Source of the DNA: a virus
Direction: 5' to 3' (one strand)
Length of the DNA stretch: 64,000 bases
Virus record (IMG/VR): IMGVR_UViG_3300050120_000210
Coordinates: 64,001-128,000 of that record
Below are positions 3,502-63,605 of this stretch, piece by piece. The notes under the pieces were generated by a model that saw only the letters and a program-made list of their open reading frames with translations, was not told where the DNA came from and searched no databases. Every line of letters starts with the position of its first letter. Position 1 is the first letter of the stretch. The position numbers and the translations under genes are program-made.

Positions 3502-4848
3502 TCAGGCCGCCATCGCCTTAGCGCCCCACGGCAGGCCGTAGTTGCCCGCACAGGTCTTACCGTAGCCCACCGCCGTCGAACGGGCGTCGTCGAGGCCACG
3601 GTTGCAGAAGCAGCATTGGCCGGTCAGCTTGCCGTAGGCAGCCGCCGTGCCAGCCGGGTCCTTGGACAGATTGGAGAGCAGGGCGACCAGCGAAGTCATC
3701 GTGCCGCCTTGCACGGCGTTGGACTTCGTCCACTCGCCCTGCGGGGTCACCCGGCCGAACCAGATGTTGTTGTCGAAGGAACCACCATCGGTGATGTTGA
3801 CCGCGCCCTTGTGGGCCGAGCGGTCACCGGCGACCGACAGGACGATGGGTTGGCCGTCCGGCAGGGCCAGACGAATCTTCGGCCACTTCAGGTTCTTGGC
3901 GCCCAGCGTCATCAGTTCGATGACACCCTTGAAGTCGCCCACGTCCAAGGTCTTCGGACCTTGGTTGGCGCGGGCCTTGTTGTTGAAGTAGACGCCGACG
4001 ATGGACGCGCACAGTCCGGCCGAGCGGGGCTCCATCATGGTCGCATCGGCGATCACCGTGATGTTGTGCTCGTAGTCGGACAGTTCGGTCTTCTCGCGCA
4101 GGCTCGACGCCCAGTTCAGGGCTTCGGCGGCGAGTTGACGTTCGGCATCGCCGAACGGATGGGCGACCGGGTCCATGGTGAAGTAGGACCACGCATGTTC
4201 ACGAGACGCCGTCAGGTTGGGGTTCTCGTAGGCGGCCTTGCCCGACACCCAGCCATGACGAAGAACGGCGCGGGCGGCACACACCGCGAACTCTTCAACG
4301 GCGATCCAGCGCATGTCCTGCGGAGTGATCGAGCCCAGTTGGTAAGCGCCACGACCGCACTCATAGGCATAGCCCAGCAGTTCGGCGAGTTTGGCGATCT
4401 TCATGGGATCGTGGCCGAAGAAATCCTTCAGACAGGTCGAACCGACTTGCTTGAACTCTCCGGTCTCGTCATTCCGCACCACGAAGGTGTCGCGACGAAA
4501 GCGGTTCACGTTGCAGTGGTCACAGCGGGTGTTGACGGCGGTGCGGTAGGCGTCCGGCAGGGAGCCCGCGTTCGGGACCATACGGATGATTGTGCCGGTG
4601 TCGTTCGAGTGGTCGAGGCGGGCGACGAAGGTCCAGCCGTTGAGCTTCGGCACTTCGGCGGTCAGCATCACCGAGTAGACGCGATGCGTCTTGCCATCGG
4701 CGAGTTCTTTTTCTTCGTGGCTGAACGTGAAGGGACGGATTTCCGAGCCGATCAGCTTGACCGACTTCTTGGAGAGCTTGGCGATCTGCGCTTCGAACTT
4801 GGCCATGTTCTCGGCCGGGATTTCGAAGAGGGTGCGAAGGTCTTCCAT
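3502..4848 (-). CDS. Conserved phage protein with CxxC motif and C-terminal DUF6011-like zinc finger
   Basis: CDHC..R.R..VGSTCLKDF; CCFCNRGLDDARSTAVGYGKTCA; strong codon bias; sigma70-like promoter upstream. Confidence 0.8.
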   Translation of the reverse strand: MEDLRTLFEIPAENMAKFEAQIAKLSKKSVKLIGSEIRPFTFSHEEKELADGKTHRVYSVMLTAEVPKLNGWTFVARLDHSNDTGTIIRMVPNAGSLPDAYRTAVNTRCDHCNVNRFRRDTFVVRNDETGEFKQVGSTCLKDFFGHDPMKIAKLAELLGYAYECGRGAYQLGSITPQDMRWIAVEEFAVCAARAVLRHGWVSGKAAYENPNLTASREHAWSYFTMDPVAHPFGDAERQLAAEALNWASSLREKTELSDYEHNITVIADATMMEPRSAGLCASIVGVYFNNKARANQGPKTLDVGDFKGVIELMTLGAKNLKWPKIRLALPDGQPIVLSVAGDRSAHKGAVNITDGGSFDNNIWFGRVTPQGEWTKSNAVQGGTMTSLVALLSNLSKDPAGTAAAYGKLTGQCCFCNRGLDDARSTAVGYGKTCAGNYGLPWGAKAMAA

Positions 4849-4925: not shown

Positions 4926-5243
4926 CTAACCCTCGAAGTGGAGTTTGAACAAAAGTAGGTCCGAAAATGAAGCGAACTCCATAGTGGTTATGTAGTGACC
5001 CAGTATCATTTCACCCTTGGGTTCTATCTTGATGTAGTGTTCTTTACACCATGCCACGATCTCGGGGCTGAACGTATGCGTAGTGAACACGCTGGGACCA
5101 ATTTGTTGACGATTCGTCGTCATCCAACCTTCTTTTGGAAAAATAGCATTTTTTTCTAGCAACACGGGGGCAAGATCAGCCATGGCCTTGTCCCAATCTC
5201 TTCTCCACTTCTTGGATGCCGTGGGAATATCGTCGTCCATCAT
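4926..5243 (-). CDS. Small protein, DAxLFKMF family
   Basis: EIVAWCKE; ends MEFASFSDLLLFKLHF. Confidence 0.75.
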   Translation of the reverse strand: MMDDDIPTASKKWRRDWDKAMADLAPVLLEKNAIFPKEGWMTTNRQQIGPSVFTTHTFSPEIVAWCKEHYIKIEPKGEMILGHYITTMEFASFSDLLLFKLHFEG

Positions 5244-5479
5244 CCGAACCGCAACTTGAAATGGATGGCGTCTCGCTCATCGGCGAAGCAGAACTCCATG
5301 CGTCTCTGGACGCTGTCCATAGCCCAATCGCCCAACGAACATTCTTTCTCGATGAACTCGACCATGCCCCGATCTTCGCCCATGGCGATGTGAACTGCCT
5401 CGATATCCGTGCGAATGACAAACGGAAGCGGCGGCCTTCGCCACCGTTGTTGAGCAGAGACTTGTTTACCCGGCCTCAT
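5240..5479 (-). CDS. Small protein, DAxLFKMF family
   Basis: Ends FCFADERDAIHFKLRFG. Confidence 0.75.
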   Translation of the reverse strand: MRPGKQVSAQQRWRRPPLPFVIRTDIEAVHIAMGEDRGMVEFIEKECSLGDWAMDSVQRRMEFCFADERDAIHFKLRFG

Positions 5480-56760: not shown

Positions 56761-56948
56761 CAGAAGTCGCGCTCCCATTCCTCGTCGGACGCTTCATCGA
56801 GCATCTTCTTGGCGTCAGCACGCCACTTGTCCCGTTGCTTGGATGACATGGCGCCCCACGACGGAGACAGACCCGGCGGCGCGGCGCGCACATGGCTCTC
56901 GTAGAGAGCGATGGCCACGAGTTCGAGATGAGCAACATCCTTTTTCAC
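56760..56948 (-). CDS. Small hypothetical protein
   Basis: VAIALYE..W......W..A pattern. Confidence 0.6.
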   Translation of the reverse strand: MKKDVAHLELVAIALYESHVRAAPPGLSPSWGAMSSKQRDKWRADAKKMLDEASDEEWERDF

Positions 56949-58480
56949 AGGACGCTCCGCAAGAGTTCGATGGATCGCTCACGACCATAGGCGGCGATAA
57001 ACGAGCCGAAGCGCGGCCCTTGTTCGTCGCCGAAATAGACCTCGTAGATGGCCTTGAACCAGTCGCGCAGCGGCTCGAACATGAACGACTTGCCAATCTC
57101 GTAGACATGCCACTGGTAGCCTTCACCATCCAGTTCATCACTGAGGTTTTCGAGGGTGTCAGCCAGTTCGGAGAACGCTCGTGCTTCATACTCGGTCGGG
57201 GGGCGGCGGGGCTTCCGCTCAACATGCTCACGCACGTAGGCGATGACACCGGGAACAAGGCTCCCAATGAATGCGCGGTCGCCAACACTCAGCGACTTGT
57301 ATTGGTCGAGGTAGTTCATCAGTGTTTCGGCATCCTGCGCGCCCGAAACGGTCGCGAGGTTGATGAGCAGGCTATAGCTCACGTCCGCGTTGTAGGGCGG
57401 GGGCGAGCCTTCATGAACGTGCCACACGGGCGAGTCGAGGCGAGCCTTCCCTTCGAGCGCCGGGAAGGCGGTAAGAGCCTTGAGATATTCATCGGTCACA
57501 CGAGGGATCACCGAAGGCGTAAACGCCTTCGCCGAGCGCGGCGACATGAACATGAACTGTGCCAGTGGGCCGGACGCACTATAGCGGTTCCACGTTTCCG
57601 TGGTCATGCCGTTGCCCAGCGACTTCGAAAGCTTGCGGCCTTCGTCGTCAAGGAACAGTTCATAGAAATAGGTCAACGGCGCCTTGCGGCCGACCGCCTT
57701 GCAGATACGGGTACTGAGCACGGCGCTGTCGATCAAATCCTTGCCGTGCATCTCGTAATCGATGTTGAACGCCATCCAGCGCATCGCCCAGTCAACCTTC
57801 CATTGAAGCTTGACCTGACCACCAAAGATGCTGGTCTGATGAATCGAACCGTCTTCGTCGGTGAACGTGATTTCGTAATCGCCGAGAAGACACACGTTCG
57901 CATTGTCCAACACCTTGCCGGTGTTGGGGCTGAGCGGCATGAACGGCGAATAGGTTTCGGCACGATTGCCGCCTTGACCACCGAGCGACGGCAGCATGAT
58001 CTTCATGACCGCGTCATAGTGATCGTAGATGAGCTTCAGAGCTTCATTGAATCCACCACCGGCATAAATCTCCGTGGACGACACGAACTCGTAGCCCACT
58101 TCCATGCGGTCCAAGAAATGTCGAAGAGCGATGTTGTTTCGGGCGGCGAAACTCGAAAACTCACCGAACGGATCACACACACGCGTCAACGGAAGACCGA
58201 TGTCTTCGCTCATTGATGCGGGCATACCGTCCGGTACGCGGCGGAAGCCGTCGTAATCATCCGAGAAAACGATCAGACGAGTTTCGACCTTACCTTCGGT
58301 CAGTTCCTCGAACGCGCAGCGGACCATGTTCGTGCGAACGACTTCACCGAACGTGCCGATGTGCGGGGCGCCAGAAGGACCGAAGCCAGTCTGAAAAGTC
58401 ACGAGGGGTTGCCCTTCCACACGCTGCAACAGCGCGCGGGCTTGTTCGAACGGCCATGACTTGGCTTCGAGGGCACTCAC
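56945..58480 (-). CDS. lysS: Class I lysyl-tRNA synthetase
   Basis: WPFE.A, TGFGPSGAPHIGTFGE, KLQWKVDWAMRW, GKDL, KLSKS, GPRFGSF; AAGGAG SD before GTG 58480. Confidence 0.96.
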   Translation of the reverse strand: MSALEAKSWPFEQARALLQRVEGQPLVTFQTGFGPSGAPHIGTFGEVVRTNMVRCAFEELTEGKVETRLIVFSDDYDGFRRVPDGMPASMSEDIGLPLTRVCDPFGEFSSFAARNNIALRHFLDRMEVGYEFVSSTEIYAGGGFNEALKLIYDHYDAVMKIMLPSLGGQGGNRAETYSPFMPLSPNTGKVLDNANVCLLGDYEITFTDEDGSIHQTSIFGGQVKLQWKVDWAMRWMAFNIDYEMHGKDLIDSAVLSTRICKAVGRKAPLTYFYELFLDDEGRKLSKSLGNGMTTETWNRYSASGPLAQFMFMSPRSAKAFTPSVIPRVTDEYLKALTAFPALEGKARLDSPVWHVHEGSPPPYNADVSYSLLINLATVSGAQDAETLMNYLDQYKSLSVGDRAFIGSLVPGVIAYVREHVERKPRRPPTEYEARAFSELADTLENLSDELDGEGYQWHVYEIGKSFMFEPLRDWFKAIYEVYFGDEQGPRFGSFIAAYGRERSIELLRSVL

Positions 58481-58493
58481 GTCGAGACTCCTT

Positions 58494-58763
58494 TTAGGCG
58501 GCGGCCAATTCACGTTGCCGCGCCTTGCTCAATTGGTCAGGCGACGGGCGATTTCGCCAGTCGTATACCAAATCGATCTGCTTGAAAACCACCGGCGTGG
58601 CAGTCTCCGCACAGGGTTGGCCATTGTCCAACATGATGTGGCCACGGCCACCGTTCGCCGGACCCGGCACGATGCCCCCGCCGAACAGACTGGTCATGAA
58701 CGCCAGACGTAGTTCACCATTATGCCGGACTAAGGTCCACGGCTTGTAGAGATTGCTTCGCAC
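58494..58763 (-). CDS. Hypothetical protein
   Basis: AAGGAGG SD. Confidence 0.7.
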   Translation of the reverse strand: MRSNLYKPWTLVRHNGELRLAFMTSLFGGGIVPGPANGGRGHIMLDNGQPCAETATPVVFKQIDLVYDWRNRPSPDQLSKARQRELAAA

Positions 58764-59904: not shown

Positions 59905-60429
59905 CTATTTCTTGGTGGTGATTACCGTGGTCACAACTGCCGCCGGAGCGACAGGCGCGCTGGGAACGACAACTGTTGGTTTGACTACCGGGCACCAGAT
60001 AGACTTGGTGCCGCCGTCATATGGCTTGGCGAACCCGCCATCAACCATGAGCTTTCCGTAGTCTCGGCCATCCTCAAGCGTAACCGTTCCGAGCAGGCGG
60101 CCGTATTTGTCATGCTTGGTGGTGTCGTAGTGCACAACGACCGTCGAACCCAAACGAATGACCGTCTTTGCGTAGGCGGACGCTGCTTCTCCGAGTTTCA
60201 CTTCGCATAGGCTCTTGCCGGGTGGCATACGCTTTTCGGGGGTATCGATACCGTCGATCCTCACATCATCGGGATTGTAAGGCACGGGCCAACCGGCGAT
60301 CACAACCTTGATGGTGTCGCCGTCGATAACCTTGATGACTTTGGCTTGGTAGTCGATTGTCGCTGCGGCGGCGGGAGCAACTCCCAATAGATTGAAAGCG
60401 GCCAGCAGGATAAGTGCATACTTTTTCAT
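59905..60429 (-). CDS. Thermonuclease (SNase-family) with signal peptide
   Basis: VIDGDTI, VRIDGIDTPE, DKYGRLL, G.A..Y.GG. Confidence 0.9.
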   Translation of the reverse strand: MKKYALILLAAFNLLGVAPAAAATIDYQAKVIKVIDGDTIKVVIAGWPVPYNPDDVRIDGIDTPEKRMPPGKSLCEVKLGEAASAYAKTVIRLGSTVVVHYDTTKHDKYGRLLGTVTLEDGRDYGKLMVDGGFAKPYDGGTKSIWCPVVKPTVVVPSAPVAPAAVVTTVITTKK

Positions 60430-60667: not shown

Positions 60668-60742
60668 AACTAGGTTCCTTTCAATTTCTTGATAATGAAC
60701 CTATTTATGTTGCGCTGCAATATCTATCTGAACAGTGTTTAC

Positions 60743-61264
60743 TTAGGCCCAATTCTCGAACTTCACGAGATCATCATAGGGCAAATTATAGCAATCCGCC
60801 GAGACCTTCCAACCGTTCGATGGATCAACGTCACCGACCTTCAGGAACTTTGCCCGATCCTTGTAGGTCTCTTTCTGAATGATGCCGATGATATATCCAC
60901 GCGTGTAGTCTCCGGTCTCCTTGACGCGGTAGAGCGACACGAACACATAGAAGTCGGCGCGTTGAGCCGTGTTGAAGTTCGCGACCGATGCTTCGTAGCC
61001 AGCGCGCGGCGCCACGGTACGATCCTTGGTCTTCACCTCAAACGATGTGCCTTCGAAAGTGATGTCATGCTGATAGGTGTTGTGGGACTCCGAACCACCC
61101 CAAGCAGCGAGTACGATTTCCTCGCCCAAGAAGCCTGCAAGATTACCGGAGCCCCTGCGGATCGAGTTACGCAGTTCACCCATCTCCTGAGCCTTCTCTG
61201 AGGCTCTATCGACCATCTCCTGAGTGATATCGATCTCGATGAAACCTTCGCGGGTGATGTTCAT
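60743..61264 (-). CDS. PD-(D/E)xK nuclease-like protein
   Basis: GFLGEE...HD...FEVKTK...DFYVF. Confidence 0.7.
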   Translation of the reverse strand: MNITREGFIEIDITQEMVDRASEKAQEMGELRNSIRRGSGNLAGFLGEEIVLAAWGGSESHNTYQHDITFEGTSFEVKTKDRTVAPRAGYEASVANFNTAQRADFYVFVSLYRVKETGDYTRGYIIGIIQKETYKDRAKFLKVGDVDPSNGWKVSADCYNLPYDDLVKFENWA

Positions 61265-61644
61265 CAGATTGAGTGCCGCATTTGGACTGCCTGATCGCGC
61301 GCCGCATTCATTACGACTTGCGCGATGGGCGGTAGGTTGGTCGCCTTGGCGAAGTTGAACGTCAGGCCATCGGCCGCAGCGAGAAGCGTGAAAAACGGTG
61401 CTTCTCCGTCCGGGGTGAACACCGTGACATTGACTTCAAACGGTCTGCCACCGGCCCGGTAGCGGAACCACTGGCCGTTGCAGTCGTAGGTGGCCTCTCG
61501 CGTGCCCTTGTTGAACGAAAGTTGGGCGGCCATGACCAAGGTCTCACCAAGTAGTCTCGGTTCGGTTCGACCATAATGGAGTGCGGGAGGTGGCTTGTCG
61601 TCGAGATGATCTTCAATTTCGACTTGGGCAGCGGCAGTCAACAT
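61264..61644 (-). CDS. Hypothetical protein
   Basis: TGATG coupling; start uncertain. Confidence 0.6.
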   Translation of the reverse strand: MLTAAAQVEIEDHLDDKPPPALHYGRTEPRLLGETLVMAAQLSFNKGTREATYDCNGQWFRYRAGGRPFEVNVTVFTPDGEAPFFTLLAAADGLTFNFAKATNLPPIAQVVMNAARDQAVQMRHSI

Positions 61645-61717
61645 GGGCCATCACTTGTCAGGAATGAACCTTCAAAGTAGCCCGTGCACGGACCTATCTG
61701 CAATATTTTCGTAAACC

Positions 61718-61868
61718 AAAATAGGCCCACCGGGTGGGCACATGGCGTGACCGGTGGGCCGTAATGGCTTCGGACGGGCTGCCATCAACCGTTCAGGAGC
61801 CCGGCGCCGAACATCCTGACTCAGGGGTATGTCCTAAAAGGGCAGTGACCGTTCTGATCCTTACCCTA
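61718..61868 (-). ncRNA. Candidate ~150-nt structured RNA ending in a terminator
   Basis: Hairpins GGGTA/TGCCC, TCAGGA/TCCTGA, ATGGC/GCCAT; CGGGCT/AGCCCG possible pseudoknot; GGCCCACCGG/CCGGTGGGCC plus U-rich tail. Confidence 0.45.
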
Positions 61869-61874
61869 GACACG

Positions 61875-61905
61875 AAAAAGCCGCCCCGGATTTGCCGGAG
61901 CGGCT
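61875..61905 (-). terminator. Terminator of the GOLLD-like transcript
   Basis: AGCCGCTCCGG/CCGGGGCGGCT-TTTT. Confidence 0.8.
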
Positions 61906-61954
61906 GGGAGTCCCGCGCTAGTCGGGATATGAGAACTGCCGGAGCAGTTTGATG

Positions 61955-63105
61955 TTAAAGCCGTGAGACTACAGGCTTAATGACTGGCCTTCCGAGATTA
62001 TAGCCCACTTGCGATGGACCTTCCCCGATCATCCACCCTCTGCTCTTGCGAGTCAAAAGGTAACCAGCCGATGCCGCCTTTTCCCTATCGAAGCCCGAAG
62101 GCATAGGCGAGTGGCTTATCTCGCGTCGTAGTGTGTCCTCGGCGGTTCCTTCTCCGTTGACCATCGCTGGCCATTCAGGGTTGCAGCCCCTACGAAAACC
62201 TTCCCACCAACGTCCGGTTGCCTTGCGAGCTTCCGACCGTCTCGGTTCCAAATCGCCACCCGAAGATGACGACCCAGCCGAGAATTAGGCATCTTGTTAC
62301 ACACTACCGGGGCAGAACTTTGCGTTTTTCTAAGACAGTTGGAATTGAACCAACGACCTCATCCTATGCAGGGATGCGCTCTACCAGAGTGAGCTATATC
62401 GCAATCCACCAAGACGTGCTGCCCCAGTTGCTTCACCAGCCTTTCAGCCGACAAAATACAACACGCCTCATCCCTTTCATCCGGCTAAGACTACTCAGGT
62501 GTCCTTTTGGACCTAGTGACGTTTTCACGCCCCAAGACCCTGAAGACTGCCACCCGCCCTAAGCTGCGAAGCCTCGGACCTGATGACTACCCGTTAACTC
62601 TCGACCATGGACGTGCTTTGCATGTCTCGGTGCAGGACGCAAACCCCGCTTGGACCGACCTGCTTTCCCCACCGGCGAACCGACAAGGGCATCGAGCCTA
62701 GTCCTATCCCCTCTCAGGGACCAAAACGCACATCGTCCGATCTATCTCCTATCCCGAAGGTAGAAGACCCTCTTTAGGAGGGTAGTTCGGGCCTCTTTGG
62801 ATGGACTACAGTTGCCTGTAGGGACGGTATGTGGACCTTCCGCCCTTATCCCACCTCGCGGCGGGTTATCCGATTATACTGGCGCCAAATCGCCAGTTCT
62901 CAACACCCGTCCTATCGGTCGAACGAACTACCCCGCACATCGACCGAAGCCGACGTGCAAAGTGATCCAGTAGGATCGAAGAGACGTTCCGCACGCCGCC
63001 CGAAGGCGACTTAACCCGACCGAAGCCGAGAGGCACGGAGTGCCGAAACTTGTGTGCTAGGAGCGGGTTTTCCCGCTCTCAGCGAAATTTTTTGGTCTGT
63101 GACCG
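61955..63105 (-). ncRNA. GOLLD-like giant ornate RNA (~1.15 kb)
   Basis: Promoter TTGACC-N17-TAGGTT; many UUCG/GNRA hairpins with minus-strand G-U pairs; segments resembling GOLLD as recalled (GUGUUGUAUU..AGCAAC..GCAGCAC, CUGCCCCGGU, UAUAAUC, UGUAGUCUCA); embedded tRNA-like domain. Confidence 0.75.
62331..62403 (-). tRNA. Degenerate tRNA-Cys(GCA)-like domain inside the GOLLD-like RNA
   Basis: Intact D arm, anticodon arm CATCC-CTGCATA-GGATG and T arm GTTGG-TTCAATT-CCAAC; weak acceptor stem, U37, no CCA. Confidence 0.7.
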
Positions 63106-63182
63106 AAACACCAACCTAACAACTCGCCATTTTCTGGTCAACTACTTTTTACGATCTCTCGTAATTATTTTCGTTCACCAGA

Positions 63183-63505
63183 TGGTGGAAGCCGTTGGGA
63201 GAGCGCCGCTGCCCCAGCCGTGATTTGGAAAGTAGCGACCCCTTTCGGAAGACGCAATATCCTTTTTCGCAATTTCGTGACGAAGCCTGTGGATAACTCG
63301 CAAACGAAACAACGAGGGGTCGTCAAGCCGTTTGGCCCGGCATTCTCGTTGAGCCAGCAGCCTCGTATCTTGATGACTGAGAGCAAACTCCCGCCTGTGG
63401 GAATGGCGTCCCCGGCACGTTCCCGAGGCCCTCCACTCAAAACCGCACAAGGCTCCAAAGCCCGCCGGTCCACAGCCCGTGTCATACCACGGCGCCACTC
63501 GTCCA
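63183..63505 (-). ncRNA. Unclassified ~320-nt structured RNA
   Basis: Promoter TTGACT-N17-TAATCA; 5'/3' closing helix; CTGTGGA/TCCACAG; several hairpins whose G-U pairs work only on the minus strand. Confidence 0.6.
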
Positions 63506-63605
63506 GTTCTGATTAGCAGACAACAAGTTACCAGTCAATCTGCGCGAAAACTCCAATTTTGAGTTTCGATAAATACTCGAAGCCTAATTGGATCATCTCC
63601 CTTCA

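Follow-up and report, generated by a model that had tools for sequence, protein, structure and literature searches.

The window analyzed here is a 64,000-nt stretch of DNA corresponding to bases 64,001-128,000 of a 149-kb linear virus contig. It contains a 1.8-kb island (61718-63505) which raises the question of whether several adjacent structured RNAs form one RNA machine or are separate genes that happen to be neighbors. The original prediction described three consecutive minus-strand RNAs in this island, with a GOLLD RNA in the middle and two flanking RNAs as its possible partners or cargo. The contig probably represents part of the genome of a T4-like jumbo myophage from soil with an alphaproteobacterial host, since its major capsid protein shares 81% identity with its counterpart in the 469-kb Sinorhizobium phage Phosso and 66% with that of Atu_ph07; a class I lysyl-tRNA synthetase close to the island (56945-58513, minus strand) is consistent with this assignment. 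ARAGORN calls three tRNAs in the 149-kb contig, two of which are real tRNAs and one of which is within the island, and no tmRNA.

The island has no credible protein-coding gene, as was proposed. Its longest readable ORFs reach 114 aa. The syntenic relative L091 can be aligned along the full length of the island, and 33 of the 35 indels between the two have lengths not divisible by three; no conserved reading frame survives across this alignment. The indel pattern excludes coding, and the island is non-coding. The most negative folding z-scores fall on the minus strand, and all 13 true matches of a structural descriptor for the third unit (unit C) are in the sense of GOLLD, in agreement with the minus-strand structure suggested earlier.

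By its sequence, the middle unit (61959-63109, minus strand, about 1,150 nt) is a long variant of a known RNA class, and the prediction of an oversized GOLLD of about 1.15 kb holds. The assignment draws on the Rfam match, the orthologue and an RNA-library contig. All 416 positions of the GOLLD model RF02032 (1-416) match 61959-62469 on the minus strand with 143.4 bits (E 1.7e-39), which is just below the gathering cut-off of 150 bits (the curation threshold), with the tRNA-like insert scored partly as an insertion. The same model gives 159.3 bits for the syntenic orthologue L008 and 165.3 bits for phiCbK. Both conserved terminal loops, AUAAUC and GUARUCUCA, are present in the covariance-model alignment, and the location in a phage genome and the tRNA-like domain match the habit of the family. 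The length from promoter to 3' end is 1,148 nt in the window, 1,141 nt in L091 and 1,160 nt in L007; elsewhere it is 867 nt in phiCbK and 797 nt in Bajun, mostly 830-960 nt in the other loci and mostly 800-960 nt over all comparators, with a few other loci also above 1,100 nt by rough estimate. A 3' trailer with an intrinsic terminator (61870-61958, minus strand; stem 61879-61905 plus U-run) follows, and an equivalent hairpin is found in L008/L091.

The extra length can be attributed mainly to a lineage-specific structured 5' extension of about 210 nt (62897-63109, minus strand) ahead of the canonical 5' domain. The extension has a folding z-score of -3 to -4 and eight compensatory pairs relative to L091, a count reached by none of 50 substitution shuffles. 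Among the loci compared, no recognizable homologue of the extension was found outside of L091. An 883-nt contig from the soil metatranscriptome of an independent study spans 62155-63037 with one mismatch and joins the 5' extension, the intact tRNA-like insert and the 3' domain. GOLLD relatives that are about 95% identical and cover 61974-63028 occur in runs of two further metatranscriptome studies. This comparison leaves out run X1, which is a possible source of the window DNA, and does not count some small-share runs. The RNA contigs, from four studies, contain only GOLLD sequence and give neither strand nor level. None was found over the other RNA units of the island described below (A1, A2 and C) or over the flanking ORFs; since absence cannot be concluded from contigs and short RNAs frequently go missing, this gap is not counted as evidence. 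One contig joint that skips the tRNA-like insert (run X11, depth 2, 21-nt side) was not taken as an excision; it most likely comes from the GOLLD of another organism.

The GOLLD linker also carries a degenerate tRNA-Cys-like domain with a GCA anticodon (62330-62403, minus strand), which was absent from the original prediction. It forms an ARAGORN-type cloverleaf and is bridged by the RNA contigs. The presence of tRNAs within the GOLLD linker is already known (PMC12286853), a pseudo-tRNA in GOLLD has been reported (PMC6582537), and it has been proposed that GOLLD stores tRNAs (PMC12990946). The insert resembles tRNA-Cys in its cloverleaf and GCA anticodon, but differs in that it has G73 instead of U73, U37 instead of a purine, no CCA and an acceptor mismatch (6 of 7 pairs), and in that it is embedded in GOLLD. 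In L091 the T-loop is decayed; the anticodon loop is identical and sits on a compensated stem. A functional tRNA-Cys was rejected on the basis of these defects.

The GOLLD inserts collected across loci were compared with the free tRNAs of those loci. Only 4 of 24 inserts have CCA versus 272 of 334 free tRNAs, and anticodons with A34, UAU or stop anticodons, which are almost unused by bacterial tRNAs, occur in 9 of 24 inserts versus 6 of 334 free tRNAs. Judged by these features, GOLLD tRNA inserts for the most part rarely look functional. The lack of working-tRNA features in these embedded "tRNAs" argues against cages that store functional tRNAs; decoys or kissing loops are offered as the alternative. 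An anticodon-loop palindrome of at least 4 nt is found in 15 of 24 inserts versus 70 of 334 free tRNAs. Column shuffling gives an expectation of 7.6 palindromic insert loops for the 15 observed (p 0.0008), or 5.8 for the 11 observed when only unique loops are counted (p 0.006); since this test on 24 inserts (the L001-L094 set) was post hoc, used relaxed ARAGORN calls and ignored relatedness, the enrichment is a lead only.

Previously unannotated GOLLD genes were located in the cultured alphaproteobacterial phages phiCbK (L002, 3630-4496), Bajun (L086, 1945-2742) and CcrSC (L153, 1862-2277), as well as in L001, L003, L094 and L095. In phiCbK-like phages, what has been annotated as "tRNA-Gly/Lys" is the insert of GOLLD. 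The literature searched contained no link between GOLLD and Caulobacter phages.

Upstream of GOLLD, a single RNA of about 320 nt had been proposed. A structured RNA is present, but it is limited to a core of about 150 nt (A1), which is followed by a variable spacer, a third promoter-like site and a short leader (A2). The TTGAC promoters assigned to the first two units are both kept in L091, and the second is also kept in L007. The promoter of A1, P1 (63511-63538, minus strand; TTGAC ... GCTAATC), has its -35 and -10 conserved in L091 and resembles the Caulobacter housekeeping-sigma consensus. A P1-like motif occurs about 21 times on the P1 strand of the genome. The promoter of GOLLD, P3 (63113-63141, minus strand), is conserved in L091 and L007. 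A promoter-like site that had been overlooked, P2 (63229-63257, minus strand; TTGCGT ... GCTACTTT), is conserved in L091 and mirrored in L007. It is located 116 nt upstream of P3, a spacing like that of tandem rRNA promoters. The island promoters are missing from the output of a generic sigma-70 scan, and their assignment is based on conservation and on the Caulobacter consensus.

The leader A2 (63142-63223, minus strand) between P2 and P3 aligns in the window, L091 and L007; its first 40 nt or so are conserved and its structure signal is weak. The variable spacer (63258-63355, minus strand) has 56% identity and no structure signal. It contains a DnaA-box-like 9-mer, TTATCCACA, at 63288-63296, which is conserved in L091 and also occurs upstream of the Bajun GOLLD promoter. 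There are three copies of TTATCCACA in the 149 kb.

A1 (63356-63503, minus strand) is a structured RNA of about 150 nt. The predicted fold has a closing helix enclosing a hairpin, a three-way junction, plus another hairpin. Relative to L091, its 45 pairs contain five two-sided and two one-sided changes and no broken pair. The consensus energy and the compensatory count are reached by 0 of 50 substitution shuffles, and coding controls are null. No homologue beyond the window and L091 was found in the loci and genomes searched, including a pattern scan of IMG/VR; therefore, A1 rests on two sequences and is treated as a two-member candidate family. A comparison with Rfam, which did not include the catalogue of PMC10690425, gave no family for A1, and for the flanks nothing beyond a guanidine-III match of 14 bits (E 7.3, against a cut-off of 36). 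Guanidine-III and the other Rfam riboswitch or ribozyme readings of the flanks were rejected because their scores are far below cut-off or there is no match. The first unit was also considered as a tmRNA in view of a UCCACCA-like end; this was rejected, as there is no ARAGORN or Rfam call and L091 does not keep the CCA.

The third unit, C, is located downstream of GOLLD. It had been estimated at about 150 nt, and it is a structured RNA without an Rfam family, but its conserved core is about 100 nt (61723-61821, minus strand). The first hairpin (61793-61820, minus strand) has a GCGC loop and the invariant palindrome CGGCGCCG at 61802-61809. It is followed by an H-type pseudoknot (61762-61792, minus strand), in which 61781-61787 pairs with 61762-61768, and by a terminal hairpin (61724-61760, minus strand) with a UACG-type loop in most homologues. 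All three elements are found in all homologues. The conserved pairing is that of the pseudoknot; a loop-loop pairing proposed earlier (CGGGCT with AGCCCG) is absent from L091 and is not retained. Homologues of C occur in L091, L007, phiCbK and 17 near-identical records, BL57, Brevundimonas phage Bajun, CcrRogue, CcrBL10, and CcrSC with its relatives. In phiCbK, C is at 102098-102194 with the GOLLD gene just upstream of it, and in CcrRogue C is at 102302-102402.

Nine phage sequences of C, that of phiCbK among them, in a MAFFT alignment that was not fitted to structure, have 83.7% of cells paired and two-sided changes in 25 of 34 pairs. None of 500 shuffles reaches any of the pairing measures, and slid registers drop to 30-48%. 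A hairpin and pseudoknot descriptor applied to 250 CGGCGCCG site-strands gave 14 matches, of which 13 are known homologues, all on the same strand. On this covariation, C is a real RNA family, with or without GOLLD. Neither C nor its homologues match Rfam, in a comparison that did not include Weinberg 2009, Morgado 2020 or the viral RNA catalogue of PMC10690425; both flanks are thus structured RNAs without an Rfam family, as had been stated. Pattern scans for C in IMG/VR, metagenomes and GTDB returned only known phages, L091 and chance matches lacking the pseudoknot, and blastn of C and the first unit against cultured phages returned chance matches only.

The last two units were both said to end in terminators. 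This is correct for GOLLD, which has the hairpin at 61879-61905, but the last hairpin of C is a conserved part of the RNA and not merely a terminator, since a separate terminator-like hairpin with a U-run comes after it in phiCbK and Bajun. C need not be the leader of the downstream ORF (61264-61644) because this ORF has its own promoter-like site (61674-61703, minus strand), which was identified from sequence and has its -35 region conserved in L008. Dimerization of the C hairpin is predicted, but any hairpin with a palindromic loop would give such a prediction, which by itself lends no support. A pairing of the C terminal loop with the 5' end of tRNA-Cys, considered in CcrRogue, fails in Bajun and CcrSC and was rejected.

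On balance, the island is probably a cassette of phage genes for non-coding RNAs that evolve separately from one another, and is comparable in this to a phage tRNA cluster. The promoter anatomy suggests that host polymerase would transcribe these genes, and by analogy with the family the tandem promoters P2 and P3 would drive strong GOLLD synthesis. GOLLD would then build a homo-oligomeric cage with the tRNA-shaped domain in the lumen, as in its family (PMC12286853); cage formation here is assumed from two other GOLLD members of 700 and 833 nt. No promoter was found directly before C in the window; therefore, C would be produced by transcription running through the GOLLD terminator (61879-61905) or by processing. 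Its anatomy suggests that it would fold alone and probably self-associate through the palindromic GCGC loop, and short RNAs can oligomerize via such loops (bioRxiv 10.64898/2026.07.01.735769). The three RNAs would adjoin through shared promoters and a similar purpose, not through forming one particle. This purpose may tentatively be that of abundant stable decoys, which would absorb host nucleases directed at tRNA or structured RNA, RNA-binding defense factors or translation factors; we regard such a job as the best guess, though a doubtful one.

The flanks as partners or cargo of an RNA machine is the part of the original prediction that is not upheld. In that explanation the GOLLD cage would have C, and possibly A1, as facultative partners or cargo, which would be transcribed together with GOLLD and either packed inside the lumen or attached to the shell. 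C is directly downstream of GOLLD in two unrelated groups, the jumbo myophages (window, L091, L007) and the phiCbK-like siphophages plus Bajun, within about 60-500 nt of it in five lineages, a pattern suggestive of co-transfer or of a facultative link. Without a promoter of its own in the window, C may share the GOLLD transcript, and cages formed in vitro have an empty lumen (PMC12286853). In both A1-bearing genomes, 8 nt at the 5' end of A1 could pair with the C palindrome; however, this segment is buried in the covarying helices of A1 itself. Complementarity between C and GOLLD is at the level of shuffles, with no conserved position. The co-occurrence expected of a machine also fails in both directions. 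A whole-genome search, for which phiCbK, Bajun and CcrSC served as positive controls, found no GOLLD in CcrRogue or CcrBL10, both of which carry C, and in CcrSC the two genes are 66 kb apart. Most GOLLD phages are without C: it is absent in 32 further phage records, mostly GOLLD-bearing and including Phosso, and 30 other GOLLD loci are without it. Many of the 32 records are fragments, but nine of them are cultured genomes and seven reach a completeness of 90% or more. A1 is missing in 23 records, including the complete 578-kb relative (L007/G024) that has GOLLD and C, and the close relative Phosso has GOLLD without C or A1. Since phiCbK relatives without GOLLD carry C, it looks like an independent RNA rather than a fixed component of a GOLLD machine. 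A multi-RNA machine is not supported by these genome comparisons, and a facultative cargo role is unlikely. A related proposal, in which palindromic loops organize the cage interior, is quite unlikely. The inserts of adjacent subunits would kiss via self-complementary anticodon loops (UGCA in the window), and co-transcribed small RNAs like C, with its GCGC loop, and A1 would dock there or be stored as facultative cargo; if true, this would mean a heteromeric protein-free RNA particle with exchangeable contents.

C could also be a cis-acting element, such as a self-cleaving motif or a pseudoknot that blocks exonucleases, which would process or stabilize the transcripts of tRNA clusters and so help a neighboring tRNA or tRNA-like RNA to mature. 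The position of C just upstream of tRNA-Cys(GCA) in all examined C-bearing Dolichocephalovirinae fits with this, as do its compact H-type pseudoknot and the GCA anticodon that is also found in the window GOLLD insert. We regard it as rather unlikely, in view of the fact that no tRNA follows C in the window, L091 or L007, the anticodon of the L007 insert differs, a terminator-like hairpin is often located between C and tRNA-Cys, and no Rfam ribozyme model matched. The remaining explanation is that GOLLD is the sole RNA gene and that the flanks act as DNA (an origin, protein-binding palindromes or terminators) or are incidental. The DnaA-box-like 9-mer, the perfect 8-bp palindrome and the restriction of A1 to two genomes would agree with it; however, the G-U pairs of C are strand-specific and its pseudoknot shows several compensatory changes, its own promoter-like site precedes it in CcrRogue, CcrBL10 and L007, and A1 compensation is stronger on the minus strand, which makes a role as DNA very unlikely.

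The separate-gene cassette can be compared with several known systems. The window GOLLD is like RF02032 in the full match to the conserved 3' domain, the variable 5' domain, the phage location and the tRNA-like element in the linker. It differs from known GOLLDs in having tandem promoters and no tRNA array nearby; neighbors at other GOLLD loci include tmRNA, Y-RNA-like RNAs and tRNA arrays. Solved GOLLD cages are the env-38 14-mer (PMC12286853) and the Streptococcus agalactiae 12-mer (reviewed in PMC12990946). Compared with the solved GOLLDs of 700 and 833 nt, the window RNA has about 1,150 nt and an extra 5' extension of about 210 nt, so this variant tests the effect of the extra 5' domain on cage size. 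The island as a whole is like the tRNA/tmRNA clusters of phiCbK-like Caulobacter phages, where GOLLD, C and other RNAs are adjacent and have similar promoters. These phages are siphophages with a tmRNA and a real tRNA-Cys, whereas the window belongs to a probable T4-like jumbo myophage with no tmRNA call and adds A1. T4 RNA C and RNA D are small phage RNAs of unknown function in a tRNA cluster. C and A1 resemble these RNAs and the short self-assembling RNAs manA and EGFOA (bioRxiv 10.64898/2026.07.01.735769) in size class, stand-alone structure and possible loop self-association, but there is no sequence or Rfam similarity and the resemblance is of kind only.

Tractable systems for the study of GOLLD function are few. 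GOLLD and a new pseudoknot RNA family are now placed in phiCbK, a model phage that can be cultured and for which an RNA-seq series of the infection has been published (GSE241057, PMC10688885). Its close relatives CcrRogue and CcrBL10, which lack GOLLD and keep C, provide a ready natural comparison for both RNAs.

Other conserved RNAs were observed near GOLLD, C or tRNA-Cys. L026 and L057 have a different conserved RNA of about 250 nt, with its own promoter, ahead of GOLLD; it is unlike A1 and has no Rfam match, and in L026 it is located about 550-830 nt before the GOLLD 3' end. L007 has more structured ORF-free stretches around C (4440-4770 and 5100-5350) with no Rfam match, one of which contains several T-loop-like hairpins. 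CcrColossus and CcrPW (L104, 11750-12600; L105, 11650-13400) have three to four dispersed conserved repeats of about 45 nt near tRNA-Cys and tmRNA. Kikimora and Bambus (L107, L108) have another conserved, probably pseudoknotted RNA just upstream of tRNA-Cys, in the slot where C is located in other members of their phage group.

The genes next to the island were also inspected. A 173-aa ORF (60743-61264, minus strand) adjoins it and is kept in L007 and L091, as well as in L009 and L010, which are without GOLLD. It has no Pfam or PHROG match; of the named Atlas clusters, those of restriction-like or T4 EndoIV nucleases come closest, at 0.90-0.91. An SNase-like nuclease (59905-60429, minus strand) is also close to the island. 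A protein search with the neighboring Ig-repeat gene, which encodes 2,125 aa, found nothing. This gene is preceded by an ATAAATA late-promoter-like motif at 63569 (plus strand); the motif also occurs before a short ORF at 60708 (minus strand) and has 13 copies in the contig.
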